Origin: Candidatus Omnitrophota bacterium | GTDB lineage: Bacteria; Omnitrophota; Gorgyraeia; Gygaellales; Gygaellaceae | Assembly: GCA_018400015.1 (NCBI GenBank) | Contig: JAGYNB010000001.1 | Coordinates: forward strand, 70,815 to 134,814 | Length of the DNA stretch: 64,000 bases | Direction of reading: 5' to 3' | In this document: in pieces, positions 33,957-55,424 of the stretch | How the letters are laid out: every line of letters begins with the position of its first letter | How positions within the stretch are numbered: position 1 is the stretch's first letter | Notes under the pieces: model-generated | What the model saw: the letters and a program-made list of their open reading frames with translations, nothing else | Told to the model about the DNA's origin: nothing | The model's database searches: none | Program-made: the position numbers and the translations under genes

Positions 33957-35430
33957 AAAAAGCAGAATAGGTTATATTATTTTAGGATTAATTTTGATCG
34001 CTAATATTAGTTTTAGCGAAGAGGTTAATTTTGATAAAGCCACATTGGAATTGTCTTTAATCGATGTTTCCAGTATTGCCATAGAGAATAATCTTGATAT
34101 CCAGATTGCAAAATACGATGCCTACATAAAAAGGAATGATGATTTAAGCAGTCGCTCTATATATGATACGATTTTTTCAGTTTCGGCAGCATATGATAAA
34201 GATGAAAAAGTTTCTTCCAGTTCTTTGGCGGCGGATTCAACAACAACGCGAGATTACACAGCCGGCATTTCCAAAAAGACTCCCACAGGTACTACAGTAG
34301 GAGTGGATTTTGAAAATCAGCGCGTAGATACTGACTCTGGCCTTGTGAACATGAATCCTAGCAATGATGTAAAGGCAAAACTTTCCTTAAAACAGGAATT
34401 AGGCAAGAATTTCTTTGGTCTTAAGGATAGGTCTGATATAAAAATTACTAAGTTAGAGATAATTAATTCCGATTACGCTTCTTTGGAGAAAATTGAAGAC
34501 GCTTTATTGAATGCCCAGAAGGCGTATTGGGAATTAGCTTACCTTTATGAGGAGTTAAATATAAGAAAAGAAATGCTTAATAAAGCCAAGCATTTGATGA
34601 GAATATATGAGGATAAGTATAAACTTGGGTTAGTAGAAGACCCTGATTTGTTTGCTGCTCAAGCCAATGTTTTATTAAGAAAAAATGAGCTTAGAATAAC
34701 AGAAGAACAGCTTGAGCTGGCCAATAGCGATCTGTTGTTGATGCTTAATGAGGAAAGTACGGATTTGGATATTTTGCCTAAAGAAAAAATAGAATTTAAA
34801 GTTTTTGATGTAGATTTTAACGAGTCTTTAAAACAGGCGATTTCTCATCGCAGGGACTATTCGCAGGCAAAAAACAATATAAAAGCAAAAAATATTAAGC
34901 TGGTAACCAAAAAAAACAATCTTTGGCCGGAGATAGATTTAAGCGCCAGCCTTACGAAAAACGGTATTGATTCTTCATATAGCGAAGCCTTATCGGCAAT
35001 AAAAGATCAAGACAATAAGGAAGTATATGTCGGTTTTACTATTAAGATACCTTTAGAGAATTCGGATGCGAGATCACAGCTTAATAAGGCGCGTTTAGAA
35101 AAGGCAAAGTATTTAGTTATGCTTAAACAGGTTGAGCGTAAGATTTTGCTTGATATAAACGATAAGATAACTATTTTGACTTCGTTTTTAAATCAGGTAG
35201 AAACGAATATTACTATTGTTGATCTGCAGCAGAAAAAACTCGAAGCTGAAGAGGCTAGGTTTAGCTTAGGCAGATCATCAAGTGATATTTTAATTCGTTA
35301 TCAGGAGGATCTATTAAATGCTAAGCTTTCTTCGGCGGTTTCAATATACCAATGTGAATTAGCATATATAGATTTATTAAAAAGCCAAGGAACGCTTTTA
35401 GATAGCTATACAAAAGGCAATGTATTATGA
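33946..35430 (+). CDS. TolC-family outer membrane efflux protein
   Basis: It has a signal peptide, two-repeat TolC/OEP architecture and coiled-coil-rich segments, at 494 aa. Confidence 0.75.
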   Translation: MKSRKSRIGYIILGLILIANISFSEEVNFDKATLELSLIDVSSIAIENNLDIQIAKYDAYIKRNDDLSSRSIYDTIFSVSAAYDKDEKVSSSSLAADSTTTRDYTAGISKKTPTGTTVGVDFENQRVDTDSGLVNMNPSNDVKAKLSLKQELGKNFFGLKDRSDIKITKLEIINSDYASLEKIEDALLNAQKAYWELAYLYEELNIRKEMLNKAKHLMRIYEDKYKLGLVEDPDLFAAQANVLLRKNELRITEEQLELANSDLLLMLNEESTDLDILPKEKIEFKVFDVDFNESLKQAISHRRDYSQAKNNIKAKNIKLVTKKNNLWPEIDLSASLTKNGIDSSYSEALSAIKDQDNKEVYVGFTIKIPLENSDARSQLNKARLEKAKYLVMLKQVERKILLDINDKITILTSFLNQVETNITIVDLQQKKLEAEEARFSLGRSSSDILIRYQEDLLNAKLSSAVSIYQCELAYIDLLKSQGTLLDSYTKGNVL

Positions 35431-38400: not shown

Positions 38401-38573
38401 TAGGCGGGAGCGACCCATTTTTAAGGCCAATGGCTTTGTCTATTTCCTGGGGTCTTTTATTTGGAACAGTACTTACTTTGGTAATAATGCCTTGTATTTA
38501 TGCGATAATTGACGATATTACTGTAAAGGTTGTACATCATGCGACAGTGCGTAAGAATAATAACAATCATTAA
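35427..38573 (+). CDS. RND efflux transporter (AcrB/CzcA family), 12 TM
   Basis: At 1048 aa, it has the characteristic TM1, large loop, six TM, large loop, five TM layout and conserved GxxxD(D/E) in TM4 (VVDDGIII). Confidence 0.85.
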   Translation: MKIIEFSVKHSLFVNLLSALIIIAGVISMFQLRREAFPEVSFDIVTVETMYSGASAEEVEKLVTAPLEKELKNVDDVDELSSSSREGYSLIALELNPDLNENDVMKVVDDIQKAVDRVTDLPEGVEDKPLVTEITSNDMPAIKLALSGNLPEAQLRDLADKLEDRIENIEGVSSIRKTGWRDEEYWVEPDINKLKTFHVSIEEIMQALSKKNVTIPAGKLRLDGQEFIVKTTGEFVAKEDIENVIIRANDLGNWLRVKDLANVRHTFEEESIIHKTMGTRSITLIVLKREKGDAIKMVAQIKDEIKDFTKSVPKELKISTPYDLSYYIERRLNVLRNNGAIAIVLVVAVLFLFLHPMAALFTSLGIPIAMLATFWYMNSVGMSINMISMFGLIIVLGMVVDDGIIISENVYRYFENGMPAKEAAIKGANEVMAPVFATIMTTFAAFSPLLFMSGLIGKFVKQIPLVVIIALSASVIEAFVILPSHLADFVKANKDNKENRVSKIGKTIFNKVSRLYNKVLNKALNHRYKFAATILIIFITSMVYAKLFMPFLLFGSKGVEQFHIRAEAKPGTSLYRMEELLRPVEEFVGNMPREYLDSYETLIGSISEERGFDPNAKQASNVAQIEVYLSPAQGRRVSAKQIMDDMRGDLVKIKDKLPELEKLYFKEFKDGPPTGKAVDLRVRGEDFQILKTIAEEVKEYLSSLKGIKDIDDSYDTGKRELRVIIDEEKSTMAFLTVGEVATSLRNAFEGGMATEITRSKAEEKIKVLVRLPQKQRDTMDVFNNLVIVNKYGNLVPLKSIATIEDSWGLTSIEHYEGERIIGVSASVNNKQMTSKKANGLLKYKFKDISDRYPGYSIKYVGEEQDNVESMRSLVQAFAVAFLLIFLILATIFNSLIQPFVVMLTIPFGLVGVIFALSVHNEPVSFLAIMGIIGLAGVVVNDSIVFVDFINKLRKQGIDRRDSIVQAGLLRLRPVMLTTITTVFGLSTVAYGIGGSDPFLRPMALSISWGLLFGTVLTLVIMPCIYAIIDDITVKVVHHATVRKNNNNH

Positions 38574-38725: not shown

Positions 38726-39175
38726 ATGGAAGAATTTTTTAGAGAAGTTGTGCTTAATAAGATTTTAATCGTGACATTGTTTGGCTGGATAATTGCTCAG
38801 ACCATCAAGGTGATTATCGGTATTATTAGGGAAAGAAGATTCAATTTCCTTTGGTTTATCGGTACTGGAGGTATGCCTTCAAGCCATGCAGCAGGCGCAT
38901 CTGCTTTGGCGACAAGCGTAGGTTTAGAGTGTGGGTTTAATTCTGTATTTTTTGCTTTGGCTGCGATGTTCGCTCTTGTGACTATGTTTGATGCTCAAGG
39001 CGTAAGGCGTGCTACTGGAAAGCAGGCCCAGATTTTAAACATGATGATGACAGACATATATTTCAAGAAAAAGATTCAGGAAGATAGGCTTAAAGAGTTG
39101 ATCGGACATACTCCTATACAGGTTTTTGTAGGTGGTCTTTTAGGCATATTCATTTCAATTTTATTTTTCAAATAA
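38726..39175 (+). CDS. Divergent PAP2 / DUF212 family membrane protein
   Basis: GGMPSSHAA and the FDAQGVRR region match the DUF212 (acid phosphatase/vanadium haloperoxidase-related) family. Confidence 0.6.
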   Translation: MEEFFREVVLNKILIVTLFGWIIAQTIKVIIGIIRERRFNFLWFIGTGGMPSSHAAGASALATSVGLECGFNSVFFALAAMFALVTMFDAQGVRRATGKQAQILNMMMTDIYFKKKIQEDRLKELIGHTPIQVFVGGLLGIFISILFFK

Positions 39176-40016: not shown

Positions 40017-40982
40017 ATGAACGGTCTTGATTTTGAAAAACCAATTTTAGAATTAGAAAAAAAGATCGATGAATTAAGGAGTTTTACAAGCGACAAGAAA
40101 ATCAATCTTGCCTCTGAAATAAACCGTCTTGAAGATAAACTTACCAGACTTAAAAAAGATACTTATCGCGATCTTAATCCTTGGCAGCGAGTACAAATAG
40201 CTCGTCATCCGCAAAGGCTTTACACAGCAGACTATATTAATACGATTATGAAAGACTTTGTTGAACTGCACGGAGATCGTTTGTTTGCTGACGACAAGGC
40301 TTTAATTGCAGGATTAGCCACTTTAGATGACAGAAAGGTTATTGTTATGGGTCATCAAAAAGGACGTGAGACAAAAGAAAATATTATCCGTAATTTTGGC
40401 TGTGCACATCCTGAAGGATACCGCAAGGCGTTAAGGCTCATGTATATGGCGGAAAAGTTTGGTTTACCCATAGTTGTTCTTATCGATACCCCCGGTGCAT
40501 ATCCTGGGGTAGGCGCTGAAGAAAGAGGTCAGGCCCAGGCAATAGCTTACAATCTTATGCAGATGGTCGGGATCAAGGTTCCTATTGTTGTAACTGTAAT
40601 CGGAGAAGGCGGTTCAGGAGGAGCTTTGGGTGTTGGTATAGGAGACAGAGTTTTGGTGTTGGAGAATTCTTATTATTCGGTTATTTCTCCTGAAGGGTGC
40701 GCAGCAATTCTTTGGAAAAGTAGCACTAAAGCTGCGCTGGCAGCAGAAGCCTTGAAACTTACTGCAGAGGATTTATTGAAATTTAAAATTATAGATGAAA
40801 TTGTGCCAGAACCCTTAGGCGGGGTGCATAGAGACCCCCAGAAGATGTGTCAGACTTTAAAAGAGGCTTTAGTAAGGAATCTCAACTCTTTATCCGATCT
40901 GTCCATAGATCAGATACTGGAAAAAAGATACAATAAGTTTAGAAAAATCGGCGATATCACCGAACCCGCAAAAGATGCTTAA
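40017..40982 (+). CDS. accA: Acetyl-CoA carboxylase carboxyltransferase alpha subunit
   Basis: The N-terminus (LDFEKPILELEKKIDEL) is typical of AccA. The crotonase-like CT domain has IDTPGAYPG and GEGGSGGAL. Confidence 0.9.
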   Translation: MNGLDFEKPILELEKKIDELRSFTSDKKINLASEINRLEDKLTRLKKDTYRDLNPWQRVQIARHPQRLYTADYINTIMKDFVELHGDRLFADDKALIAGLATLDDRKVIVMGHQKGRETKENIIRNFGCAHPEGYRKALRLMYMAEKFGLPIVVLIDTPGAYPGVGAEERGQAQAIAYNLMQMVGIKVPIVVTVIGEGGSGGALGVGIGDRVLVLENSYYSVISPEGCAAILWKSSTKAALAAEALKLTAEDLLKFKIIDEIVPEPLGGVHRDPQKMCQTLKEALVRNLNSLSDLSIDQILEKRYNKFRKIGDITEPAKDA

Positions 40983-41496
40983 TCAAGAGTTTATTATTTT
41001 AGGACTATTGAAATCCGGACCCCGTCACGGTTATGAGATTAAGAAAGAATTAAAAGATGTTGTCGGTCTTTTTGCCACGATAACCAATAAATCCATTTAT
41101 TATCCTCTTAGGCAAATGGAAAAGTCAGGTGTGGTGAAAAAAAACATATCGCGCGAAGGCGCAAGGCCCGAGAAATATACCTATACCATTACTGAACATG
41201 GCGATAAAAAGTTTAAGGAGCTTCTTTATAAGAATATTTCTCGTCTTGAGCGTCCGTTTTTCGATATTGACATGTGTCTTTATTTTCTACCTTTTTTGTC
41301 AAAGACTGAGGTTTCTAAGAGGCTAAAGGTAAGGATGAGACTCTTGGCAAAAATAGAGCATTGGCTTAAAAAACAGGCTAAGCAAAAAGAAAAATATTAT
41401 CCGCATCTTTCTGCGATAATAGAGCATAACTTAGATTTGATAATTTCAGAGACTGGCTTTACCAAGAAACTTTTAAATAGGTTAAACAAAAAATAA
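40975..41496 (+). CDS. PadR-family transcriptional regulator
   Basis: It has a PadR winged helix (ILGLLKSGPRHGYEIKKEL...YYPLRQMEKSG). Confidence 0.65.
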   Translation: MLNQEFIILGLLKSGPRHGYEIKKELKDVVGLFATITNKSIYYPLRQMEKSGVVKKNISREGARPEKYTYTITEHGDKKFKELLYKNISRLERPFFDIDMCLYFLPFLSKTEVSKRLKVRMRLLAKIEHWLKKQAKQKEKYYPHLSAIIEHNLDLIISETGFTKKLLNRLNKK

Positions 41497-41572: not shown

Positions 41573-41600
41573 TTGAAATTTAATAAAATACCTATATAAT
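41573..41600 (+). promoter_or_regulatory. Sigma70 promoter TTGAAA-16-TATAAT ahead of the acyl-AMP ligase locus
   Basis: I read it directly. It lies in a 141-bp AT-rich gap downstream of padR. Confidence 0.45.
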
Positions 41601-41602
41601 AA

Positions 41603-41630
41603 AATTTAACTATAAAAATTTAACTATAAA
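41603..41630. repeat. Tandem direct repeat, 2 x AATTTAACTATAAA, between the -10 and the ATG at 41638
   Basis: The repeats are exact and adjacent. This is a candidate operator, but it has direct-repeat rather than palindromic geometry. Confidence 0.4.
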
Positions 41631-41637
41631 GATAATA

Positions 41638-43146
41638 ATGAATATTCCCAAAATATTACAAAACTCAGCTAATAATTATAAACATAAAACAGCAATATTC
41701 TTTAAAGGTCAGAGTATAAGCTTTGCTGATTTGGCTAGTAATGTGTTCAAGCTTACTTTTGCTTTGGCGGGTTTGGGTTTAGGCAGCAAAGATAAGGTTG
41801 CAATATATCTGCCGAATTGCCCAGAGTATATCTATACCTATCTTGCAATTTGGTCCAGTGGATCAACAGCAGTTCCGTTGGATTTTATGCTTACTGAGGA
41901 TGAGCTTGTATCCTGTATTGAACACTCCCAGGCAAAATTTTTAATAGCAAAATCTAAGGTAAAAATTAGCATTTCTAATATAAAATCTAGGTGTAGATTT
42001 TTGGAGAAAGTCATTGTTATAGACGAAGATAAAGAGTTTATTAATTTTGGATCTCTTTTAGAAAATGCCGAAGATAAATATCCTGAATGTAACTTTTCTG
42101 ACAAAGATTATTCGATAATCTTTTATACCTCCGGAACCACTGGAAAACCAAAAGGTGTTTTAATAAATTATGCGCAGATCGAAGCGCCTGCTAAAGGGAT
42201 GAAACATTTTGTGAATCTTAACGATAAAGATGTTGCCCTTTGCGCGATCCCCTTGTCTCACTTGGGGGGTTTAGTTTTCCTGCAATCTATAGTTTTTCTG
42301 GGAACAACTGTTGTGTTGATGGAGCGTTTTATGCCGGTAGAGTTTTTAAAAAACATAACAGAAAAACAAGTCACTTGTTTTTGGATTGTCCCATCAATGT
42401 ATTATGCGATTTTACAGCTCAAAGAATTCGAATGTTTTGATTTATCCAGCCTTAAGTGGGTGGTTTCATTCGGCGCACCCAGTTCTGCAGAACAGCTTAG
42501 GCGTTTTCATAAATACTGCCCGCAGGCAAAGTTTGTCAACGGCTGGGGAATGACTGAAACCAATGCCCCCAGTGTGGTAATTCCTTTGGGGAGCAAAAAG
42601 TTAGAAAGTGTTGGCCTTCCGGCTCCCTGGCTTGATCTTAAGATATTCGATAATGAAGACAATGAGGTTAAACGCGGTGAGGTTGGTGAAGTTGTGGTAA
42701 AGGGATCGGTTGTAACAGACGGTTATTATAAAGATCCGGAGTTAACCAAAGAAACTATGCGCAGCGGCTGGTTTCATACAGGAGATTTGGGCAGGCTTGA
42801 TGAAGAAGGTTACTTATATATATGCGGACGCAAAAAGGAAATGATTAAAGTTGGCGGCGAGATAGTCTTTGAGCCCGAGGTGGAGACGGCGATACATAAA
42901 CATCCTTCAATTGTCGAAGTTGCGGTTATTGGCGCAAAAGACAAATTAAGAGGAGAAGTTCCCAAGGCGCTTATTGTTTTAAAAGACAATACAAAATTAA
43001 CCGAAGATGAAGTCAGACTGTTTCTAAAAAAGCACCTGGCACATTTTAAGATTCCTCATTACTTTGAATTTGTAGATTCGCTTCCCAAGACCCGTTCAGG
43101 AAAGGTCGATAAGAAACTATTAAGAGAAAAGAACAGGAAAAGCTAA
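41638..43146 (+). CDS. AMP-dependent synthetase/ligase (fatty-acyl-AMP/CoA ligase family)
   Basis: It has an AMP-binding box (YTSGTTGKPKGV) and the conserved GWFHTGD and GRKKEMIKVGG motifs. Confidence 0.75.
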   Translation: MNIPKILQNSANNYKHKTAIFFKGQSISFADLASNVFKLTFALAGLGLGSKDKVAIYLPNCPEYIYTYLAIWSSGSTAVPLDFMLTEDELVSCIEHSQAKFLIAKSKVKISISNIKSRCRFLEKVIVIDEDKEFINFGSLLENAEDKYPECNFSDKDYSIIFYTSGTTGKPKGVLINYAQIEAPAKGMKHFVNLNDKDVALCAIPLSHLGGLVFLQSIVFLGTTVVLMERFMPVEFLKNITEKQVTCFWIVPSMYYAILQLKEFECFDLSSLKWVVSFGAPSSAEQLRRFHKYCPQAKFVNGWGMTETNAPSVVIPLGSKKLESVGLPAPWLDLKIFDNEDNEVKRGEVGEVVVKGSVVTDGYYKDPELTKETMRSGWFHTGDLGRLDEEGYLYICGRKKEMIKVGGEIVFEPEVETAIHKHPSIVEVAVIGAKDKLRGEVPKALIVLKDNTKLTEDEVRLFLKKHLAHFKIPHYFEFVDSLPKTRSGKVDKKLLREKNRKS

Positions 43147-43148
43147 TT

Positions 43149-43895
43149 ATGATGGAAAGAAAAATTCATATAAGTTCTAAGGATTTATTGAATCAAATTC
43201 AGTTTAAATCAAAAGAGATGTCTGATATTGCCTTAGTCAGCGGTCAGGTCCACAGGGTTAAATTCTGTCTGGAGCTTTTAACTGAAGTAAAGGAGAACTT
43301 CAGCACCATGGGGTATACCTTTTGGACAGGTAAATATAAAGGTAAAAGCATAACAGTGGGCAATGCCGGGCTCTATGCGCCGGATACTGTACTAGTGACC
43401 GAGTTATTGGTTGAGACTGGAATAAATTCTTTTATCCGTATCGGCAGTTGCGGCGCGTTGACTGAAAATATACAGTTGTCTGATCTCGTTATTGCTGATA
43501 GAGCATTAAGGGGCGATGGAGTTACTAAATACTACGTTAAAGATGATTTTATTCCAGCATCTTGCGAACAGTTAAACGATGTATTAGCTAAAGATATTGC
43601 TGTTAAAGGAAAAAAAGTACATAAAGGCACGGTTTGGACTACGGATGCATTGTTAAAAGAGACTCCTGAATTCGTTAATCCGGCAATTAAACAAGGTGCG
43701 ATTGCTGTGGATATGGTTACAAGCGCATTTTTAACAATGTGTTCACTGCATAAGAAAACTTCAGCTGCGGTAATGGTGGTAAGCGATAATCTCATCACCG
43801 GTGAAGTTGATTTTACTTCAGGCAAGGTTATGGAATCGGAAAAAGTAATGTTAATCTCCAGCCTGGATGCAGCAGTTAATTTTAAGAAAAGATAA
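43149..43895 (+). CDS. PNP/UDP-family nucleoside phosphorylase (MtnP- or 5'-deoxyadenosine phosphorylase-like)
   Basis: FIRIGSCGAL matches the PNP_UDP_1 core (R[IV]GSCG). It is 248 aa. Confidence 0.55.
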   Translation: MMERKIHISSKDLLNQIQFKSKEMSDIALVSGQVHRVKFCLELLTEVKENFSTMGYTFWTGKYKGKSITVGNAGLYAPDTVLVTELLVETGINSFIRIGSCGALTENIQLSDLVIADRALRGDGVTKYYVKDDFIPASCEQLNDVLAKDIAVKGKKVHKGTVWTTDALLKETPEFVNPAIKQGAIAVDMVTSAFLTMCSLHKKTSAAVMVVSDNLITGEVDFTSGKVMESEKVMLISSLDAAVNFKKR

Positions 43896-44804
43896 ATGTC
43901 TGAGTCAATACTTGCATTGCCGGTCATATTTAAAAATGATTATATAGAAGTTTTGGACGAGACGCTTCTTCCTTTTGAACAAAAATACATTACGGTGCAT
44001 ACGCTTGAAGAAGCCTTGTCTGTATTGGGTTCTATGAAAACAAGGGCTATGGGCCAAGTATTATTGTTTTTTTACTCCTGCATGCTTTTTGAAAAGGATA
44101 ATTCTATTGAGCAAATCGCCGCTAAGTTTAAACAGACGCGGCCCACATTTGATTTTGAGCTTTTGTCAGGTTTGCTTAAAAAAGCATTAGATAAACAAAA
44201 AGATATAAAAACCGCAGTGGAAAGTTTTATTGACAATTTTCAGCAAGCAAGACATAAAAGAGCAAAGCTATTGGCTTCTATCTTGCCACTAGATGCGCGT
44301 GTTCTTACAATCTGCAATGTTAATGCCGAGCTTGTCTATCTTACAGAAGAGATGAAAAAATTGAATAAGAAAATATTTTTTTATGTCTGTGAGACAAGGC
44401 CTTATTTACAAGGGACACGTCTTACGTTCTGGGAATTAAGAAGGCAGGATATCCCTTGTAGGGTTATTTGTATTAGTCAGTCCGCAACTCTTATGCAAGA
44501 TGGGTTAGTTAATGCAGTCGTTACCGGGGCAGACCGTTCTAGCACACGGGGCGGGGTTATAAATAAAATCGGCACCTATAGTCTGGCAGTATTGGCTAAA
44601 AAATTTAATATCCCGTTTTATCCTTTAACACAGTATGCAAAGGATATTGATATAGATGAAGTAAAAATTGAACAGAGAAACAAGAATGAAGTGTTTATGT
44701 TTTTAAATAGTGATTATCCACAAGTGGATGCGGTTTATCCCGCGTTTGATGTTGTAAAAAAAGAGCTAGTCACAAAGAATATAGACCTGGATAAATTAAA
44801 ATAA
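43896..44804 (+). CDS. eIF-2B alpha/beta/delta-family sugar-phosphate isomerase (MtnA- or 5-deoxyribose-1-P isomerase-like)
   Basis: The N-terminus ([22 protein letters not shown]) matches MtnA (LDQTLLP...). The C-terminal [35 protein letters not shown] matches MtnA ([25 protein letters not shown]..IPFYV). Confidence 0.6.
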   Translation: [302 protein letters not shown]

Positions 44805-44821
44805 CTTTAAGGAGGAAAAAG

Positions 44822-46282
44822 ATGAAATTGTTATTTTTAAATCCGCCAATCGGTTCATGGGTTTACTGGGGCAAACATAGAGCAATTAATGTTGCGCATG
44901 TGCAGCTTACTGCCTGTATCAGGGAGTGGGTAAAGGGCGTAGGAATTTCCGTGATGGACTGCCGCGCATCGGAGTTAAACGATGAGCAGATGATAGAAAA
45001 AATCAAACAGATTTCACCTGATGTAATATACATGGGCGATGCCTACCAGATGACCGGAACGGTTGCGATACTGCCTCTTTATCAAAAGGCAGCAAAGTTA
45101 ATAAAAAAGAGTTTTCCTAATGTAAAAATCTGCGTGGGCGGTTTTTATATTGCGGCAAATTACGAACAGATTTCAAAAGAAAGCCCTGATTTTGATTTTA
45201 TCATTTCCGGTGAAGTTGATTTGACTTTGACTGAACTTATCCGGGTTTTAAAGGATAAGAAAACAGATTTTTCTTCAATCAAGGGCCTGCTTTATAGAGA
45301 AAACGGCGCTTTTAAAACCAACGAGTACAGAGAGCTTATAAAGGATTTAGATACTTTGCCTATGCCGGCGTATGATTTATTTCCCATGGATAAATATATC
45401 GGTTATGGTTCAATGCCTTTTTATCAGGAGATTTTTACTGCCCGCGGATGTCCATTTGGCTGCGGTATGTGTATAGATTGGGTTATTGTTGATCCAAGAG
45501 GTAACCGTGACTGGCAGCAGCATAGGTTTAAGTCTGCGGCTAGAGTGGTTGATGAGATGGAGCTATTATTGACCAAATACGGTAAAAAGTATATCCATAT
45601 ATTCGATTTGAATTTTAATCCTGTCAGACGCCGTGTAGAAGAATTCCTAAAAGAAATGCAGAAAAGAAAACTTCCTATAAAATACGCATTTTTAGGCAAT
45701 GCCCATTCGTTTGTAAGAGATAAGGATCTTTTAAAAGACTTACGCGATACAGGTTTTGTCTGCGGCATATTCGGTCTTGAGGTTGAAGATGCTGAGACCT
45801 TGCAGAAGATCAAAAAAGGTATAACTGTTCAAAACGTACACGAGGTTACCCAGATGTTCAGGGAATTAGGGATTATGTCTACAATCACCTGGATGATTGG
45901 TTTTCCTGACGATGATGAAGCAAAAATTAGAAGGCGCTTTTCAGTTTTAGATGAGATTGATCCTGATGTGTCATCACTTCAGATGATGTTGCCTGTTCCG
46001 GGAATACCTTTGTATGATGAGTTTTCTCCTTATGTGGAAGAGCATGATCTGATGAAGTGGGATTTTCATCATCCGATAGTAAGGACAAAACATCTTACGC
46101 GCCAGCAGCTGGGTGAGTTGGCAGAGTGGGCAAACAGAGAGTTTTATACCAAGAAAAACCGTATTCAGCGGATTTTAGAAAGTACCACTTTGCATGAATA
46201 CCCAAAGAACATTTTCAAAAGCTACATGTTCAATCTGGAGAAATTCGCTAATGCAGCGACAAAAGAAGAGATTATTCTTTGA
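44822..46282 (+). CDS. B12-binding-domain radical SAM enzyme (class B)
   Basis: It has an N-terminal Rossmann-like cobalamin-binding region (VIYMGDAYQMTG...ICVGGFY) and a CPFGCGMC CxxxCxxC cluster at about residue 210. A strong RBS (AAGGAGG) precedes it. Confidence 0.7.
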   Translation: MKLLFLNPPIGSWVYWGKHRAINVAHVQLTACIREWVKGVGISVMDCRASELNDEQMIEKIKQISPDVIYMGDAYQMTGTVAILPLYQKAAKLIKKSFPNVKICVGGFYIAANYEQISKESPDFDFIISGEVDLTLTELIRVLKDKKTDFSSIKGLLYRENGAFKTNEYRELIKDLDTLPMPAYDLFPMDKYIGYGSMPFYQEIFTARGCPFGCGMCIDWVIVDPRGNRDWQQHRFKSAARVVDEMELLLTKYGKKYIHIFDLNFNPVRRRVEEFLKEMQKRKLPIKYAFLGNAHSFVRDKDLLKDLRDTGFVCGIFGLEVEDAETLQKIKKGITVQNVHEVTQMFRELGIMSTITWMIGFPDDDEAKIRRRFSVLDEIDPDVSSLQMMLPVPGIPLYDEFSPYVEEHDLMKWDFHHPIVRTKHLTRQQLGELAEWANREFYTKKNRIQRILESTTLHEYPKNIFKSYMFNLEKFANAATKEEIIL

Positions 46283-46303
46283 GCTTTAACAAAAATAATT
46301 GAT

Positions 46304-46783
46304 TTGAATCTAGAAAATCTGAATAAGTCAATACTGGTATGGGGTGCTTTATCTGAGGAGGCCACTGCTTACTTAAAAAGTAAACAAAAAAGCGTTATCG
46401 TCAGTGAAAACAGGCCTTTTCTAATAGGTATAAAGCACAATAAGGATAAGTTAATCCAGGCAAAGATTGATTTTGTGTATTGTACGGACAACATGCTCGG
46501 ATTTTTGTTTTATAAAAAAAGAATAGAAGAGGTAGTGCTTTGTTATAAGAAAAAAGATGATATGGGAATTGTCGCTATCACGGGAACTCTTTTTGCAGTA
46601 ACGCTGGCAAGATTGCACAACATAAAAGTAAGAGTTTTTTCTGAAGGAGATCTGGATTATTCTAGGCTGGATAAGGATAGCATTACTTTAGACGGCAAAA
46701 CTTTGGCAATTGATGAGGATAAGGAATTTTTTGAACCAGTAAAAGATGAATTCATAGAAAAGGATATGTATGAATACAGATGA
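46304..46783 (+). CDS. Small eIF-2B-family-like protein (C-terminal half of the MtnA fold only)
   Basis: VLCYKKKDDMGIVAITGTLFAVTLARLHNIKVRVF aligns by eye with the MtnA GADR...[13 protein letters not shown]..IPFYV region. The N-terminal substrate-binding half is absent. I have low confidence in this call. Confidence 0.3.
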   Translation: MNLENLNKSILVWGALSEEATAYLKSKQKSVIVSENRPFLIGIKHNKDKLIQAKIDFVYCTDNMLGFLFYKKRIEEVVLCYKKKDDMGIVAITGTLFAVTLARLHNIKVRVFSEGDLDYSRLDKDSITLDGKTLAIDEDKEFFEPVKDEFIEKDMYEYR

Positions 46784-47759
46784 TTTAAAAAAACAGATAA
46801 TCTATTGGGCAAGGCTTCTTAATCAAAGGGGTTTGGTTACGGCAAGAAGCGGGAATATTTCCTGCAGGGCGGACGATAAAATTCTTATGACCAGCCATGA
46901 TTCTTATCTTGGGCAGTTAGCCGAAGATGAAATCGTTCTGGTGGGCTCTGATGGAGACGTATTAGAAGGCGCAAAACAGCCTACCAGTGAAAAACCGCTG
47001 CATCTGGGGATATTAGGGCATATCGACCAGGCTCAAGTTGTGATCCATTCGCACAGTCCTTTTACAACCGCATTCTTCCATCATTTTAAGCAACTGGATA
47101 TCTTTTCTTTTGAGGCAAAGTTTTATTTAGGAGATGTAAAAGTCGTTGCCCAAACTGGCCCTACGGTAACAGATGTAGATCCGGTAATAGAAGAATTGAT
47201 GGATAATAATATTGTTGTTTTGGGCGATCACGGTGTGGTGGCGATCGGCCGAGATTTTAAAAGTGCGTTTAGCCTGATTGAACTATTGGAGGAACAATGT
47301 AAGGTTAACCTTATCTTATCAGGTAAGCAGGAACAATCTTTTAATATTGAAGAGGCCAAAGAAGAGATACTGCCGGAACCGCAAACTTATGAGTTGCTTT
47401 CCGAAGGCCATATTAAAAAACTAACTGAAGTCATAAACAGCGACACAGAAGCCCAGGAATTGGGTAAAAAATATGATCTAACCTGTTCATTGTGCGTTAA
47501 GGATAAAGATAGCGAAAAGTCAGCCTGTTTTTATTATCAGCAGGGAAGGATTACGCACACCGACAATAATCAAGTTGCAGAATTTTCGATTACAGGCTCA
47601 AGAGACGTATTAAAAAGGATCTTTAACTGCAAGATCGATCCTTTTGTCGCTATTACTCAAGGTAAAGTAAAAACCAAAGGCGATATTAATAAAATCAGCA
47701 AGTGGTATCCTGCGCTGGTGAGAACGTTCAAGCTTTGGGATCAGGCAAAAGTAGCCTAA
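46770..47759 (+). CDS. Class II aldolase/adducin-family protein (MtnB- or 5-deoxyribulose-1-P aldolase-like) with a C-terminal SCP2-like domain
   Basis: It has an aldolase_II N-domain (VTARSGNIS...VIHSHSPF...VVLGDHGVVAIG). The C-terminal ~110 aa (FSITGSRDVLKRIFNCKIDPFVAITQGKVKTKGDINKISKWYPALV) resemble SCP2 sterol-carrier domains. Confidence 0.55.
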   Translation: MNTDDLKKQIIYWARLLNQRGLVTARSGNISCRADDKILMTSHDSYLGQLAEDEIVLVGSDGDVLEGAKQPTSEKPLHLGILGHIDQAQVVIHSHSPFTTAFFHHFKQLDIFSFEAKFYLGDVKVVAQTGPTVTDVDPVIEELMDNNIVVLGDHGVVAIGRDFKSAFSLIELLEEQCKVNLILSGKQEQSFNIEEAKEEILPEPQTYELLSEGHIKKLTEVINSDTEAQELGKKYDLTCSLCVKDKDSEKSACFYYQQGRITHTDNNQVAEFSITGSRDVLKRIFNCKIDPFVAITQGKVKTKGDINKISKWYPALVRTFKLWDQAKVA

Positions 47760-47797
47760 CGCTTTGAATTTTATATACAGATAGTTTTATAAAAATA

Positions 47798-50149
47798 ATG
47801 AAAAATCTTTCCATAAAGTTCGCCAAGTTTGTAATTAAATTTAGGGTTCTTTTTTTGATTGTTTTTACACTTATTTCAATATTTTTCTTTCAAGTTGTAA
47901 AAGATATTACCTTCCAGACCAATATTGATGATTTTTATCCGCAGAAGCATCCATTTGTTACAGTACAGAATAAGCTTACCCGAATTTTCGGAGGCCTGAA
48001 TCAGGTTTCCATTGCCATAAGCGTAAAAGAAGGCGATATTCTAAATAAAGACACGCTTGATAAGGTAATCCGGATTACCAATGAGCTTTATCTTATGGAC
48101 GGGATAAACCCCGGGCGTATAACTTCTTTATCCGCGCGCAAGATAAAATATATACAGGCATCAGAAGACGGATTTTCCATTGACCGTGTTTTAAGAGAAG
48201 TTCCCGCTGATGAGCTTCAGATGCTCGCTTTAAGAGATAGGATCGTTTTAAGCCCCAATGTGTATATCCGTATGGTTTCGCGGGATTTTAAAAGCACGCT
48301 TATTCAGGCTGATTTTCAAAAAGGCGTGTCTTCTAAATATATATTCGATAAGTTGCGCGAGATAAAACAAAATAAAGAAGATGGCAATACGCAGATTTTT
48401 TTAGCAGGCAGGCCTATATTGGAAGGATGGCTTAATACGTATCTTCCTAAGATGTTAAAAATACTTCTTCTTACACTTCTGGTGGTTTCGGTGGTTTTAT
48501 TTTTGACATTCCGTTCTAAAAGAGGAGTTTTTCTGCCTTTACTTGATTCTTCCATGGCTACCTTATGGGGTCTGGGGATGATGAAGCTTTTTGGCTTCAG
48601 GCTTGACCCGACGACGATTCTGGTCCCTTTTTTAATACTTGCTTTAGGTATCAGCCATTCGATTCATTTTATGAAGCATTATTATGAGGAGATGAAGCAG
48701 GAGAATAGAAAATCCAAGCACGCAGTAAGAAGAACATTGGAAGTTCTGTTTGTTCCTGCGGTCACAGCTGTAATAACCGATGGGTTTGGTTTTTTAAGCC
48801 TTGCCTTTATTCCTTTAGACACCATACGCAGCATGGCTTTAGCTGCGGGTTTTGGAATATTCAGCAATTTTTTGACTTCGTTTATTTTTACGCCCTGTCT
48901 GATCTCTTACATGAAACACCCTAAAATATTAGAGGTTGCCCGCGAAGAGGAGCATCTTTTAATTGATAAGATGCTGGGTCGATTGGCGAGTATATTAACC
49001 AATAAAAAAACACGTAGGGTCTTAAGTTTGGTTTTTATTGCAATTGTGGCGGTATCTTTAGTGGGGATAAATAAAATTGTCGTAGGGGATAATTCTTTTG
49101 GCTCAAGTCACCTTTACCCAAATAGCCCTTATAATAAAAGCGAAAGGTTTATTAATGATAATTTCGGCGGCACTAATTCGTATTATATTTTAGTTGACGG
49201 TCAAACTCAAGACAGCCTTATCGATTTGGATTCTTTGAAGAAAATTGATTCTTTAGAGCATTATATTCTTGATAATGTCAAAGAAGCCGGATATGCAGTA
49301 TCGGTTTCTGATTATATAAAGGGATTGAACTTTGCAATGTTCTCAGGCGACAGAAAGTATTATGCGTTGCCCGAGATGAGCCAAACCGTAGCTGAATATT
49401 TATTTCTTTATGATATTTCAACATACCCGGGAGATTTTGAACCTGTAATCACATCAGATTATTCCAAGGCAAATATAAAATTTGATTTAAAAGACCATAA
49501 GCCGGCGACAATAAATAACGTAATCGCCAAGACCAAAGAATGGGTTGACGAGAATATGACTGAATCCGATACATTGAAATTTGAATACGCTGCCGGTGAA
49601 ATCGGCATGCTCGCTGCAATAAACGATATTATCGCTAAAAGTATAATTCCAAGTGTAATCTTTATATCGATTCTTATTTTCGTATATTTATCTTATATAT
49701 TCGGTTCAATCAGCGCAGGGTTGTTACTATTAGTGCCGTTAATATTCAGTATCCTTGTTGTGTTTGGGCTTTTTGGTTTAACCGGAATGAGTTTAACTAC
49801 TGAAACATTGCCTCTTGCCGCATTAAGTGAGGGTCTTGGCATAAACTACGGCATATATGTTATTACGCGTCTCTTTCAGGAAGTAAGGCGCAGGAAACAC
49901 CCCAGTTATGAGGATGCTCTTAAAGCAACTTTGGTGACTTCGGGAAAAGCAGTATTTTTCAGCGGCATGATAGTTTCTCTTGGCATTTTTGTCTGGCTAT
50001 TTTCCGATATTCGCCTTCAGGCAAGACTGGGCGTGACTTTAGGAGCCACTTTAATTATAAATATGCTGGCTGCACTTGTGATAATACCACTTTTAATATT
50101 ACTGGTGAAGCCGAAGTTTATTTTTGATATAGAAAAGTTTAAGTATTAA
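47798..50149 (+). CDS. MMPL-family (RND superfamily) lipid exporter, HpnN-like size
   Basis: At 783 aa, it has two 6-TM bundles, each preceded by a soluble loop, and an SSD-like GIGVD/GISHSIH region. Confidence 0.75.
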   Translation: MKNLSIKFAKFVIKFRVLFLIVFTLISIFFFQVVKDITFQTNIDDFYPQKHPFVTVQNKLTRIFGGLNQVSIAISVKEGDILNKDTLDKVIRITNELYLMDGINPGRITSLSARKIKYIQASEDGFSIDRVLREVPADELQMLALRDRIVLSPNVYIRMVSRDFKSTLIQADFQKGVSSKYIFDKLREIKQNKEDGNTQIFLAGRPILEGWLNTYLPKMLKILLLTLLVVSVVLFLTFRSKRGVFLPLLDSSMATLWGLGMMKLFGFRLDPTTILVPFLILALGISHSIHFMKHYYEEMKQENRKSKHAVRRTLEVLFVPAVTAVITDGFGFLSLAFIPLDTIRSMALAAGFGIFSNFLTSFIFTPCLISYMKHPKILEVAREEEHLLIDKMLGRLASILTNKKTRRVLSLVFIAIVAVSLVGINKIVVGDNSFGSSHLYPNSPYNKSERFINDNFGGTNSYYILVDGQTQDSLIDLDSLKKIDSLEHYILDNVKEAGYAVSVSDYIKGLNFAMFSGDRKYYALPEMSQTVAEYLFLYDISTYPGDFEPVITSDYSKANIKFDLKDHKPATINNVIAKTKEWVDENMTESDTLKFEYAAGEIGMLAAINDIIAKSIIPSVIFISILIFVYLSYIFGSISAGLLLLVPLIFSILVVFGLFGLTGMSLTTETLPLAALSEGLGINYGIYVITRLFQEVRRRKHPSYEDALKATLVTSGKAVFFSGMIVSLGIFVWLFSDIRLQARLGVTLGATLIINMLAALVIIPLLILLVKPKFIFDIEKFKY

Positions 50150-50168
50150 AAACAAGGAGGGAAAAGTT

Positions 50169-51059
50169 ATGAGAAGCAAATTTCTAATGTGTTTGTTGGT
50201 AGTGTGTTTTATGTTTAGCGTTAACGCTTTTTGTATGGAATTTAAACACCACGAGGTTTACAAAATTACCGACGATATGGGTGCAGAAGAGATTATGGGT
50301 GTATCTACTTTTAATAAGTATACAAAGTTTGCCTATGATTATGAATCAACCGGTTATGTGCATTTAATTGAACAAAGCGGTTCGACAAGGCAAAGGACAT
50401 TCTTACGCCGCAGGATTATTTTAGGTGATAAAACAACAAAGATTGACTATAAAGACGTTACCAGCTTTACTGCTCCCACTTCAGTTAAGGGATTAGGCAT
50501 CTTAAGCTGGACCTACATGACCTACGGGCAAGACCCTGACCAGTGGTTATGGATTCCGTCTTTAAAGAAGATTCGTAAAGTCTCAGCTGCCCAAGGAGAT
50601 GATTCTTTTTTAGGATCTGATTTTACCACAGAAGAAGTTACCACAAGAAAAGTTGAAGATGAAACTTACAAACTGTTAAGAAAAGAAAAGTTTACCGGTT
50701 ACACTTCAAGCTTTAACAATAAAACTTATTATAAGGGCGCTGATTGTTTTGTAATTGAGGCAACCCCTATAAAGAGCCCTTGGTATTATTCAAAAAGAAT
50801 TGTCTGGGTTGATAAGTTAACAGGCGGTGATATCTACGAAGAGATTTTTGATGCCAACGGCAATAAATATAAATATATCTTCAAGGAATATCAAATCAAA
50901 AATGTCGATGGTCGAGATTATTCAGTGCAGACCCATCTTGAGGTAGAGGATTTACGCTCTAACCATAAGACTGTAATTGAAATAAAAGATATTAAGTTCG
51001 ACCAGGGTTTAAAAGACAGCGATTTTAGCGAAAGAATCCTGCAGAGATCAAAATGGTAA
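50169..51059 (+). CDS. LolA-like periplasmic lipid-carrier protein (DUF1329-type 'outer membrane lipoprotein-sorting protein')
   Basis: It has a signal peptide. WIPSLKKIRKVSAAQGDDSFLGSDFTTEEV matches the conserved core of LolA-like proteins that accompany RND/MMPL pumps. Confidence 0.55.
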   Translation: MRSKFLMCLLVVCFMFSVNAFCMEFKHHEVYKITDDMGAEEIMGVSTFNKYTKFAYDYESTGYVHLIEQSGSTRQRTFLRRRIILGDKTTKIDYKDVTSFTAPTSVKGLGILSWTYMTYGQDPDQWLWIPSLKKIRKVSAAQGDDSFLGSDFTTEEVTTRKVEDETYKLLRKEKFTGYTSSFNNKTYYKGADCFVIEATPIKSPWYYSKRIVWVDKLTGGDIYEEIFDANGNKYKYIFKEYQIKNVDGRDYSVQTHLEVEDLRSNHKTVIEIKDIKFDQGLKDSDFSERILQRSKW

Positions 51060-51079
51060 GCAAAAAAGGAGCCAGTATT

Positions 51080-52567
51080 ATGAAGAGAATAGTTTTATTT
51101 ATCATCGCGGTATTTATGGTCTTGGGTGTGACTGTAAATACCTATGCGCAGATGGACCAGGCGCTTGTGTATGAGGCTTTGCGTACAGTCCTGCCTTTTG
51201 AAAAACTAGAGATGGCCGGTTATTTAAAGAATGAAACTTCTTTAAGGATGGCGCATGGATTAGATGAGTTCATGAAATTCAAAAACGAAGTGAATTTTCA
51301 GGCCAATTACAGCATTAAAGATAATGTTGATTTTTTTACAACCATAAGGTGGTTCCACGACGGGTTATACAGTCTGGAAGAGGCAAGGTATACCTCGATA
51401 GATTCCAAGGAAAAAAACCGTAAGCTAAAAGTACCGGAGAAAATGCTTTGGTTAAGGGATTGTTTTGTGGATATTTATACGGATAGACTGGATATCCGTG
51501 CTGGCAAACAGCAGGTTGTCTGGGGAACAGCTGACGGCATAAGGATTTTAGATATCATCAACCCGTTAGACTACCGCGAGTGGACGCTTCCGAATTATTC
51601 TGATATCAGGATTCCTTTATGGATGCTTAATGTTGAAGGTGAGCTTTTAGCTGACGGTCACTTGCAGCTATTATTGATTCCAGATTATCAGGCGAATTAT
51701 TACGGACCGGCAGGCGGGCCGTTTACTTTAAGAACCGTTGACGTGGGTGCAAAAAGCATAAGTTCTTTGCCGCCTTTTGTTACTACGACAACTATAAGTG
51801 AACGCCCAAAACGCAACTTTGAAAATACCAAGATTGGCCTTCGCTGGCGCAATGTAATCGGCGCAGGCTACGCACAAGGCCTGGAATACACGCTTAATTA
51901 TTACCATGGGTATGATTTTGCATCCGCAGCTTATACATCTGTAAAGATTGTCCCAGGCGGATATTTTAAACTCACCCGCCGCGCAGAAGGAATTGATGTC
52001 TTCGGCGGAACATTTTCAAAGACAATTACAAGCGGTGCGTTCGGCGTGCCTGAGCTTTTTAAAGGCTGGACGATAAGAGGCGAGTATGCTTTTATAAAAA
52101 ACGGAGCAATGAATTACGGAACCGATGCCAATATTGAAGGCACAGTAGATGTGGACCAGTTTAATTATGTTTTAGGGTTTGATAAAAACTTCTGGACGAA
52201 TTGGCTGTTTAGTTTTCAGTTTATCCAGATGAATGCCAAGGAAACTGAAAAGTTCGATAAAAATCAGTATGTATTATTAAATGGTGCAACAAGAGGTCCT
52301 TTGGGAGATCAGGAGACGACTTTAAGTCTTAAGATCTCAACGGACTTTATGCATGAGCGCGTTAAGCCCGAGGTATTGATTCTTCATACCGTAGGTAGTG
52401 AGCGTTCAGACCGAGATTGGAGAATAAGCCCTAAGGTCAGCTTTGAAGTTAACGACCGCTGGCAGATAGCAGCCGGTGCGCATATCTTCGAAGGTGAAGA
52501 GCAGCTCTTAAGCGGCCAGTTTGATAAAAACGATCAGGTGTTTTTTGAGACAAAGTATAGTTTCTAA
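51080..52567 (+). CDS. DUF1302-like outer-membrane protein
   Basis: It has a signal peptide (MKRIVLFIIAVFMVLGVTVNTYAQ), LDIRAGKQQVVWGTADG resembles the DUF1302 signature, and the C-terminal residue is Phe. I chose the start at the ATG after AAGGAG, 27 nt inside the ORF-track call. Confidence 0.45.
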   Translation: MKRIVLFIIAVFMVLGVTVNTYAQMDQALVYEALRTVLPFEKLEMAGYLKNETSLRMAHGLDEFMKFKNEVNFQANYSIKDNVDFFTTIRWFHDGLYSLEEARYTSIDSKEKNRKLKVPEKMLWLRDCFVDIYTDRLDIRAGKQQVVWGTADGIRILDIINPLDYREWTLPNYSDIRIPLWMLNVEGELLADGHLQLLLIPDYQANYYGPAGGPFTLRTVDVGAKSISSLPPFVTTTTISERPKRNFENTKIGLRWRNVIGAGYAQGLEYTLNYYHGYDFASAAYTSVKIVPGGYFKLTRRAEGIDVFGGTFSKTITSGAFGVPELFKGWTIRGEYAFIKNGAMNYGTDANIEGTVDVDQFNYVLGFDKNFWTNWLFSFQFIQMNAKETEKFDKNQYVLLNGATRGPLGDQETTLSLKISTDFMHERVKPEVLILHTVGSERSDRDWRISPKVSFEVNDRWQIAAGAHIFEGEEQLLSGQFDKNDQVFFETKYSF

Positions 52568-52593
52568 AAAGCTAACAAAAAGAACAAAAAAAG

Positions 52594-52627
52594 ACCCCGC
52601 TTTAAGATGTAAGCGGGGTTTTTTTAT
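52594..52627. terminator. Bidirectional rho-independent terminator (ACCCCGCTT-8-AAGCGGGGT flanked by A/T runs)
   Basis: It is a 9-bp GC-rich stem with T7 downstream on the + strand and an A-run upstream, giving a T-run on the minus strand. It sits between convergent genes. Confidence 0.65.
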
Positions 52628-53076: not shown

Positions 53077-53159
53077 TGCCGAAGGTGGGAGTTGAACCCA
53101 CACGAGGTTACCCTCATCGGTTTTTGAGACCGACGTGTATGCCATTCCACCACTTCGGC
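53077..53159 (-). tRNA. tRNA-Leu (anticodon CAA), type II with long variable arm
   Basis: The reverse complement reads GCCGAAGTGGTGGAATGGCATACACGTCGGTCTCAAAAACCGATGAGGGTAACCTCGTGTGGGTTCAACTCCCACCTTCGGCA. The acceptor and T-arm are nearly identical to E. coli leuX, the anticodon loop is CUCAAAA, and no CCA is encoded. Confidence 0.85.

Positions 53160-55348: not shown

Positions 55349-55424
<76 letters not shown>

Follow-up and report, generated by a model that had tools for sequence, protein, structure and literature searches.

A portable module that links a B12-type radical SAM enzyme to a probable DHAP-shunt-like enzyme line in an Omnitrophota operon

We analyzed a 64,000-nt stretch of the Candidatus Omnitrophota bacterium assembly GCA_018400015.1 (contig JAGYNB010000001.1, positions 70,815 to 134,814 of the forward strand; hereafter, the window) for the makeup and likely function of an operon at window positions 41573-52627. 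This locus is a putatively PadR-controlled operon around a portable gene module. The core of the module comprises a B12-type radical S-adenosylmethionine (SAM) enzyme, an MtnA-like isomerase, a degenerate short paralog of that isomerase, and an aldolase of class II that carries an SCP2-like domain as a fusion; its usual companions are an enzyme resembling purine nucleoside phosphorylase (PNP), an acyl-coenzyme A (CoA) ligase, and an aldehyde dehydrogenase. We see about an even chance that the radical SAM enzyme tailors a hydrophobic substrate, that the PNP-isomerase-aldolase line disposes of the 5'-deoxyadenosine formed, and that the product is effluxed. This line resembles the dihydroxyacetone phosphate (DHAP) shunt, in which a phosphorylase, a 1-phosphate isomerase, and an aldolase of class II act on 5'-deoxyadenosine (PMC6079011).

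The evidence that carries this reading begins with the strict co-occurrence of the genes. Among 92 related loci that we collected (designated here by L numbers), 34 hold both the isomerase and the aldolase-SCP2 gene, and the radical SAM gene is present in all 34, including the six that were found by seeding on the aldolase; the coupling of these genes that a first-pass annotation of this DNA had proposed is thus a conserved feature of the neighborhood. Moreover, an aldehyde dehydrogenase gene lies directly after the aldolase gene in 30 of the 34 loci, a PNP-like gene is found in 25, a short IF-2B gene in at least 26, a ligase gene in 19, a type II polyketide synthase (PKS) set in 17, and a trio of HAE3, LolA-like, and DUF1302 genes in 8-10, all of these partner counts being lower bounds, since many of the contigs are truncated. 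The gene order is shuffled between lineages, which argues that the linkage is functional, and not merely inherited. Carriers are labeled as Omnitrophota, Planctomycetia, Desulfofervidaceae, Thermodesulfobacteriota, and Fibrobacterales, with one genome labeled as Methanoperedenaceae. In this last genome (L001; LR991655.1, 2.54 Mb), the module is accompanied by LolA-like and DUF1302 genes, one protein is named Candidatus Methanoperedenaceae (an archaeon), and several genes (MMPL, IF-2B, and LolA-like) are split; this oddity could reflect mislabeling, assembly frameshifts, or horizontal transfer.

The module is found with differing scaffold genes, namely (i) type II PKS genes in 17 loci, (ii) two ligases and an acyl carrier protein (ACP) in the Fibrobacterales loci, and (iii) a ligase alone in the window, and such a variety of partners is what would be expected of an accessory unit for tailoring and salvage. 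The type II PKS set consists of KS-alpha (a ketosynthase), a chain-length factor, an ACP, two cyclases, a ketoreductase, and a major facilitator superfamily (MFS) transporter, and is usually accompanied by an Amidohydro_2 protein, an ApbA-like reductase, and a DUF2621-like protein. About half of the relatives have this context with cyclases, which speaks for aromatic polyketide-like substrates, contrary to the acyl lipid that the first-pass annotation had proposed. The window itself, with a ligase, the module, and the efflux trio, represents a minority form: its operon lacks the aldehyde dehydrogenase, and a tblastn search with the PKS proteins of L083 detected no PKS genes in the window. Similarly, L086 has the efflux trio along with the module and is free of PKS genes, and in L065 the two stand behind a PKS-type ketoreductase gene, where the contig ends. 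Another arrangement, a radical SAM gene with PKS genes and no sugar-phosphate genes, occurs in the Velamenicoccus loci L003 and L019 and in L015 and L017, and the radical SAM gene (65% identity) stands alone in L004 and L009.

Three further observations concern these related loci. In L086-L088, L091, and L092 (at approximately 7800-8640 in each), a fold-type IV aminotransferase gene (branched-chain aminotransferase/aminodeoxychorismate lyase-like) accompanies an Amidohydro_2 gene, and in many PKS-type clusters these two genes lie between the radical SAM and isomerase genes, that is, at the position of the PNP-like gene in the window. The PKS-type cluster of L083 ends with genes for a carbamoyltransferase and an SxtJ-like protein (17259-19505), which hints at product carbamoylation in that lineage. 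A role as a sphingoid-type alpha-oxoamine synthase was considered for the aminotransferase of the Fibrobacterales loci and rejected, as the protein is a generic class I aminotransferase.

The locus as such comprises nine co-directional open reading frames (ORFs) on the + strand, whose spacing varies between an overlap of 14 nt and a gap of 38 nt, or ten ORFs when the PadR gene is counted, as opposed to the eleven of the first-pass annotation, whose description of a tight packing is correct (Table 1). Pfam searches recover all of the domains that it had named (AMP-binding, PNP_UDP_1, IF-2B twice, Radical_SAM, Aldolase_II, SCP2, MMPL, LolA_like/DUF1329, and DUF1302, with B12-binding slightly under its threshold), and the motifs RIGSCG and GADR...NKIGTYSLAVLAK that it had quoted are found in the translations.

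Table 1. Genes and predicted regulatory signals of the locus (window coordinates).
Feature	Coordinates	Strand	Evidence
PadR-family regulator	40975..41496	+	Pfam PadR 56 bits; upstream of the operon promoter
Sigma-70-type promoter, TTGAAA-16-TATAAT	41573..41600	+	11/12 matches; best promoter-like site of the region
Candidate operator	41600..41628	+	Two copies of TAAAATTTAACTA, 14 nt apart
Acyl-CoA/acyl-AMP ligase, FadD-like	41638..43146	+	Pfam AMP-binding 277 bits, plus AMP-binding_C
Divergent hexameric-type PNP-like enzyme	43149..43895	+	Pfam PNP_UDP_1 114 bits
MtnA/DrdI-like aldose-1-phosphate to ketose-1-phosphate isomerase (IF-2B family)	43896..44804	+	Pfam IF-2B 140 bits
Class-B-like radical SAM enzyme with B12-binding domain	44822..46282	+	Pfam Radical_SAM 50 bits, B12-binding 29.9 bits
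Short degenerate IF-2B paralog, 159 aa, TTG start	46304..46783	+	IF-2B 33 bits, profile positions 125-214
Class II aldolase fused to SCP2-like domain	46770..47759	+	Pfam Aldolase_II 117 bits, SCP2 27.5 bits
HAE3-family RND (MMPL) inner-membrane transporter	47798..50149	+	Pfam MMPL 131 bits, sterol-sensing domain 39 bits
Secreted LolA-like/DUF1329-type periplasmic protein (AmeB-like)	50169..51059	+	LolA_like 146 bits, DUF1329 46 bits
DUF1302 outer-membrane protein (AmeA-like)	51053..52567	+	Pfam DUF1302 86.5 bits
Bidirectional intrinsic terminator	52588..52625	.	+ strand: 15-pair stem, T-run; - strand: 9-pair stem, T-run

Of the three enzymes that would form the disposal line, the PNP-like protein has the hexameric 5'-methylthioadenosine (MTA) phosphorylase of S. 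solfataricus (1JDS) as its best solved relative. Its family retains Gly20, Arg24, Arg87, Ser90, and the catalytic Asp204 (E. coli PNP numbering), and differs at three further positions: Glu181 is invariably a valine (in a VDMV motif), Arg43 is replaced by Met, Leu, or Phe (Met in the window protein), and His4 is mostly a Met. The last two positions close off the pocket on its 5' side, where the residues are hydrophobic. Phosphorolysis by this protein is plausible, not certain. In the isomerase, the Cys of an LTICN motif and the Asp of a GADR motif align with the catalytic residues of the B. subtilis and T. maritima MtnA proteins, and both are at least 90% conserved among 36 family members. The short paralog spans only the central Rossmann part of the fold, and its family retains the ExRP and DNMxG motifs and lacks the catalytic Cys and Asp; it is probably a noncatalytic partner. 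Of 35 aldolase-SCP2 loci, 29 have an ORF of 110-200 aa in the same position, with its end right ahead of the aldolase gene.

The aldolase domain has metal ligands (Glu74, His93, His95, and His154) that are invariant in the family, and its best PDB match by sequence is DrdA (6BTD), a 5-deoxyribulose-1-phosphate aldolase; by fold, a Foldseek search placed FucA (2OPI) first and DrdA (6BTG) third. Its fusion to the SCP2 domain, whose score exceeds the Pfam threshold of 21.3 bits, appears in an AlphaFold model (mean predicted local distance difference test score 88.8; predicted template modeling score 0.80) as two packed domains. The aldolase domain dominated the Foldseek matches of this model, and nothing was gained on the SCP2 domain. 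Among the best 120 of 233 aldolase-SCP2 homologs, almost all are approximately 325-345 aa long, with few truncated, and nearly all therefore have room for an SCP2 domain. Judged from these sequences, the aldolase-SCP2 protein is a new fusion family of 233 members.

The families of the DHAP shunt are thus the right ones, as the first-pass annotation had suggested, with intact catalytic residues in the isomerase and the aldolase and with DrdA as the best solved sequence relative of the latter. Its separation of the trio from canonical methionine salvage holds as well: the PNP-like enzyme scored 16 bits with the MtnP model TIGR01694 (cut-off, 275), the isomerase scored 154-167 bits with the MtnA models, under their cut-offs (154 versus 279), and the aldolase scored 62 bits with the MtnB model (cut-off, 137). 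Furthermore, no downstream methionine-salvage (Mtn) genes were found in a Pfam scan that covered 50 of the 59 window ORFs of at least 80 aa.

The radical SAM enzyme is similar over its full length to BchE, HpnJ, HpnR, and other class-B families, as well as to TokK and CysS, and its CxxxCxxC motif (Cys210, Cys214, and Cys217; CPFGCGMC) is invariant in 20 homologs. All NCBIfam scores lie under the cut-offs, with the oxidative cyclase BchE being the closest named family (197 bits; cut-off, 481) and HpnJ the second (137 bits; cut-off, 578), and hundreds of uncultured homologs are on record; by these profile comparisons, the enzyme is a member of a distinct large family, separate from BchE. Its closest solved relatives, TokK and CysS, are both iterative C-methylases. 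Of the two domain calls that the first-pass annotation had singled out for testing by profile searches, the SCP2 assignment stands on its own score, and the B12-binding assignment falls slightly under the Pfam threshold (29.9 versus 32.1 bits) and is backed by the class-B similarity, with PF02310 being recorded on most of the homologs. Cobalamin binding by the enzyme is predicted. With the class B cobalamin-dependent enzymes BchE, HpnJ, TokK, and CysS, the window enzyme shares the CxxxCxxC core and a predicted N-terminal B12-type Rossmann domain, but it differs from them in belonging to a family of its own.

At the two ends of the operon stand the ligase and the efflux genes. The ligase scored 464 bits with the long-chain-fatty-acid-CoA ligase model PRK06187 (cut-off, 476). 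The transporter, a member of the RND (resistance-nodulation-division) superfamily, scored 192 bits with the HAE3 model TIGR00921 and 72 bits with HpnN (cut-off, 752); the LolA-like protein has a signal-like N-terminal sequence in its translation, and the DUF1302 protein has a signal-like N terminus and a C-terminal ...YSF. This trio matches an efflux system of the AmeABD type and would transport its substrate outward. In AmeABCD of Castellaniella defragrans (PMC6394551), the same cassette of an HAE3 RND transporter, a DUF1329/LolA-like protein, and a DUF1302 protein stands by genes for the metabolism of hydrophobic compounds, whereas the second periplasmic protein of that system, AmeC (BNR/Ycf48-like), was not found among the ORFs of 41573-52627. 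A relay dedicated to the export of envelope lipids, as pictured in the first-pass annotation, does not agree with the optional occurrence of the trio or with its match to the monoterpene efflux type (PMC6394551). The parallel that had been drawn to hopanoid loci is likewise limited to a shared logic of a radical SAM enzyme, a PNP-family enzyme, and an HAE3 transporter (HpnH, HpnG, and HpnN, as well as HpnJ): there is no match to an adenosylating radical SAM enzyme of the HpnH type, the scores with HpnG (36 versus 187 bits) and HpnN are far under the cut-offs, no hopanoid genes were seen in the Pfam scan of the window, and the relatives go with type II PKS genes, not with terpenoid genes.

The operon has conserved putative regulatory signals at its head. 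The promoter, which had been described as a good one, is kept together with the repeat behind it in a syntenic metagenome-assembled genome (MAG; L006, 94%-related), where the rest of the upstream spacer has diverged. The tandem repeat that had been put forward as an operator candidate consists of two 14-nt units of AAAATTTAACTATA (41601-41628), directly 3' of the promoter. In its family form the motif reads TAAAATYTWAYTA, with a palindromic core TAGTAAAATTTTACTA in many relatives, where it typically occurs as two copies with a 14-nt spacing. In at least 14 loci, with proteins that share just 40-50% identity with those of the window, it is located 20-105 nt 5' of the start of the ligase gene, and in three further clusters it stands ahead of the first gene; in the 1.49 Mb of loci that we collected, it has 38 matches, approximately 30 of them at cluster heads. 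The comparative evidence for a genuine operator at this predicted site is thus good; the conservation of the motif and the dehydrogenase of the relatives are two features that the first-pass annotation had overlooked.

The PadR protein is the obvious candidate to bind this operator, an assignment that we infer from its family and position, and a PadR gene precedes the ligase gene in eight related loci. The picture of a PadR-headed operon nevertheless needs amending: the PadR gene overlaps accA by 8 nt and ends before the promoter, and is therefore transcribed from further upstream, not as the first gene of the 41573-41600 promoter. An additional operator-like motif, TAAAATCTTATTA, occurs at 38755 on the - strand, approximately 2.9 kb upstream of the ligase gene and at the start of a DUF212/PAP2-like gene (38726-39175), and L006 and L089 have it at the corresponding place; it could mark a further binding site of PadR or be a coincidence common to three close relatives. 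At the other end, the strong bidirectional terminator of the first-pass annotation was recovered (52588-52625). An Rfam search found no riboswitch in the window, its matches being two tRNA genes only, at 53077-53159 (-) and 55349-55421 (+); the first lies approximately 450 nt past the terminator, so that the operon adjoins a tRNA gene.

In the explanation that we favor, the radical SAM enzyme would tailor a hydrophobic substrate, probably by C-methylation or by BchE-like oxidative or C-C chemistry, and the FadD-like ligase would activate an acid of the substrate or product of that enzyme. The SCP2-like domain on the aldolase would probably hold a hydrophobic molecule, as do UbiT and UbiJ, which are SCP2 carriers in quinone biosynthesis; if that molecule is the hydrophobic substrate of the radical SAM enzyme, the domain is compatible with this explanation, and its fusion to a shunt enzyme would point to a shared complex. 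Each turnover of the radical SAM enzyme would free 5'-deoxyadenosine, a compound that inhibits radical SAM enzymes. The divergent PNP-like enzyme would remove the adenine, the MtnA-like isomerase would convert 5-deoxyribose-1-phosphate to 5-deoxyribulose-1-phosphate, probably with the degenerate short paralog as its partner, and the class II aldolase would cleave the latter to DHAP and acetaldehyde, which would amount to a DHAP-shunt-like line hard-wired to one radical SAM enzyme. The hydrophobic product would be expelled by the AmeABD-like HAE3 RND, LolA-like, and DUF1302 system.

This line shares with the DHAP shunt, or 5-deoxyribose salvage (MtnP or DrdK, MtnA/DrdI, and Ald2/DrdA; PMC6079011), the grouping of the same three families within a single operon, the catalytic Cys and Asp of the isomerase, the metal site of the aldolase (a Glu and three His), the kinship of the aldolase to DrdA, and the lack of downstream methionine-salvage genes nearby. 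It differs from the shunt in that (i) its phosphorylase is not MtnP but resembles DeoD and the MTA phosphorylase of S. solfataricus, and its ribose and phosphate site is altered; (ii) it has an extra degenerate IF-2B protein and an SCP2 domain on the aldolase; (iii) it always goes with one B12-type radical SAM enzyme, to which an aldehyde dehydrogenase and a ligase are added in most cases; and (iv) all of its scores lie under the equivalog cut-offs. Our literature search found no description of this gene combination, of an Omnitrophota type II PKS with a radical SAM enzyme, or of MtnA genes linked to radical SAM enzymes within gene clusters, in keeping with the view of the first-pass annotation that the combination is not a described system. 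The locus is, in these terms, a DHAP-shunt-like line with new fusions and partners, a new B12-type radical SAM family, a conserved operator, and an AmeABD-like efflux set.

That the nucleoside is the by-product of the radical SAM enzyme itself is favored by the strict linkage to that enzyme, together with the occurrence of radical SAM-PKS clusters without the shunt. In L086, which has the isomerase and the aldolase, no PNP gene lies within 10 kb, so that the sugar phosphate has to be available from a housekeeping enzyme; the nucleoside would then be one on which such enzymes can act too. Furthermore, L086 (12836-14712) and L087 (11061-12899) carry, adjacent to the aldolase-SCP2 gene, genes for a zinc-dependent alcohol dehydrogenase and an LsrF-type class I aldolase/thiolase, the latter protein scoring 362 bits, above the NCBIfam equivalog cut-off of 297. 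LsrF converts 3-hydroxy-2,4-pentanedione-5-phosphate to DHAP and acetyl-CoA, and by our own structural deduction, the LsrF substrate equals 5-deoxyribulose-1-phosphate oxidized at C4, which implies a methyl-terminated (5-deoxy) sugar. The pair thus suggests an alternative, acetaldehyde-free cleavage of 5-deoxyribulose-1-phosphate to DHAP and acetyl-CoA, and because it fits a 5-deoxy sugar, it favors the by-product origin of the nucleoside.

Several points weigh against this explanation. The PNP-like enzyme lacks Glu181, which binds the ribose hydroxyls, and one Arg that binds phosphate; the nearly universal SCP2 fusion and the second IF-2B protein are both superfluous in a canonical shunt; and the aldehyde dehydrogenase and FadD-like ligase of the relatives could equally extend a pathway from the aldolase product. 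Moreover, we found no precedent in the literature for a salvage line dedicated to one radical SAM enzyme, no gene in the window makes a hydrophobic substrate, and the enzyme roles of all members were assigned from sequence.

Some of these points lend themselves to a different account, which we consider unlikely, in which an adenosylated intermediate is the true substrate and the PNP-like enzyme, the isomerase, and the aldolase-SCP2 protein trim its ribose. The radical SAM enzyme would join a 5'-deoxyadenosyl group to a hydrophobic acceptor in the manner of HpnH and MqnE, or alkylate C5' of 5'-deoxyadenosine, and the trimming would yield X-CH2-CHO and DHAP, from which the dehydrogenase and ligase of the relatives would make X-CH2-CO-CoA or -ACP, such as a PKS starter. 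Taken as a biosynthetic route, in which a C5'-linked adenosyl or C5'-alkylated intermediate is cut to a C2 aldehyde or acid handle with release of DHAP and adenine, this proposal strikes us as rather doubtful. The fusion of SCP2 to the aldolase in nearly all homologs suggests a hydrophobic aldolase substrate, and the hydrophobic 5' side of the PNP pocket, the divergence of all three shunt enzymes from their canonical families, the extra IF-2B protein, the PF00171 dehydrogenase after the aldolase, and the FadD-like ligase that heads many of the clusters would all fit such a substrate. This dehydrogenase is a classical member of its family (603 bits), with subfamily scores (betaine-, aminobutyr-, and phenylacetaldehyde dehydrogenase-like) that are all under the cut-offs and do not discriminate between substrates. 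The enzyme order also follows the HpnH/HpnG logic and that of fluoroacetate biosynthesis in Streptomyces cattleya (fluorinase, the PNP FlB, isomerase, aldolase, and aldehyde dehydrogenase), which leads from 5'-fluoro-5'-deoxyadenosine over fluoroacetaldehyde to fluoroacetate: this pathway, named as an analog of the shunt in PMC6079011, acts on a SAM-derived, 5'-modified 5'-deoxyadenosine, and the reaction order in the relatives is identical to it. However, there is no fluorinase/chlorinase (DUF62) gene here, the radical SAM enzyme is the only SAM-cleaving enzyme, and the dehydrogenase is not in the window. We know of no cobalamin-type radical SAM enzyme that adenosylates a substrate, and the closest solved relatives are C-methylases; the radical SAM-PKS clusters without trimming genes, the lack of a dedicated PNP in L086, and the fit of the LsrF-type thiolase to a methyl-terminated sugar all argue for the disposal of 5'-deoxyadenosine instead. 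A reverse, synthetic role of the aldolase, joining DHAP to a fatty aldehyde, was rejected, as the classical, effectively irreversible PF00171 dehydrogenase puts the aldehyde after the cleavage step.

If the operon served the catabolism or detoxification of a hydrophobic or phenolic compound from outside the cell, with PadR as its sensor, it would retain the 5'-deoxyadenosine shunt and differ from the explanation that we favor in its aim, not in the shunt mechanism. Here, the radical SAM enzyme would carry out an oxygen-independent C-H functionalization, the dehydrogenase (in the relatives) and the ligase would lead to a CoA ester, and the RND transporter would hold the intracellular concentration at a tolerable level. 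The usual signals of PadR regulators are phenolic or lipophilic compounds, scaffold-forming genes are absent from the window, and the alcohol dehydrogenase, aldehyde dehydrogenase, and ligase of the relatives resemble an upper-pathway series. Consistent with such an aim, HAE3 systems of the AmeABCD type give monoterpene tolerance and sit among catabolic genes (PMC6394551), and mutants in the P. putida DUF1302/DUF1329 genes PP_0765 and PP_0766 have fitness phenotypes in fatty-ester assays (Tween 20 and butyl stearate). We nevertheless regard this aim as improbable, given that about half of the related loci lie within type II PKS clusters, whose ACP, cyclases, and MFS exporter are biosynthetic, and that the Pfam scan of the window showed no genes for beta-oxidation or ring cleavage. 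Ordinary salvage of methionine/MTA or of purine nucleosides that by chance stands beside an unrelated radical SAM enzyme and pump could be read from the methionine-salvage families of the trio and from the MTA phosphorylase as the best solved PNP relative; such a coincidence is highly improbable in light of the scores far under the MtnP, MtnA, and MtnB equivalog cut-offs, the absence of downstream Mtn genes in the Pfam scan of 50 window ORFs, the linkage to the radical SAM gene in every one of the 34 loci across several phyla with shuffled gene order, and the placement of the whole operon under one operator and one promoter.

Outside the operon, the window is housekeeping in character, with genes for translation factors, purH, folE, a Bat/MoxR operon, a MarR-TolC-AcrB set, accA, leuS, comEC, lptE, and murJ, and a close relative, the Omnitrophota MAG Candidatus Gygaella obscura, is 94% identical. 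In the MarR-TolC-AcrB set (33489-38573), genes for a MarR regulator, a TolC-like outer-membrane efflux protein (33946-35430), and an AcrB-like RND pump (35427-38573) stand in a row; no periplasmic adaptor gene was recognized between these genes, and Pfam gave no match to the 720-aa ORF that precedes them (30750-32912). The window also has a second radical SAM gene (5774-6985), which is of the lysine-2,3-aminomutase/EpmB type and has as its neighbors a D-Ala-D-Ala-ligase-like ATP-grasp gene, a gene of the PAC2 family, and an M20 peptidase gene; this group (1141-6985) is possibly a small peptide or amino-acid modification set, unrelated to the operon.

In summary, the locus defines a large uncharacterized radical SAM family, an aldolase-SCP2 fusion family, a degenerate IF-2B partner, and a candidate PadR operator. 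Were an adenosylated intermediate the true substrate, the locus would stand for new SAM chemistry, and as a route to a C2 handle it would make the ribose of SAM a C2 donor in polyketide or lipid tailoring, which was previously unknown, and would add a new reaction type for cobalamin-dependent radical SAM enzymes. If the explanation that we favor is true, this would be the first found case of a 5'-deoxyadenosine disposal line that is co-encoded with one particular radical SAM enzyme, and that spreads with it through the biosynthetic clusters of uncultured anaerobes, from Omnitrophota to Desulfofervidaceae, other Thermodesulfobacteriota, Fibrobacterales, and MAGs labeled as Planctomycetia. By-product inhibition would then be a real constraint on high-flux radical SAM chemistry, and the line would provide a ready-made helper cassette for the heterologous expression of such enzymes.

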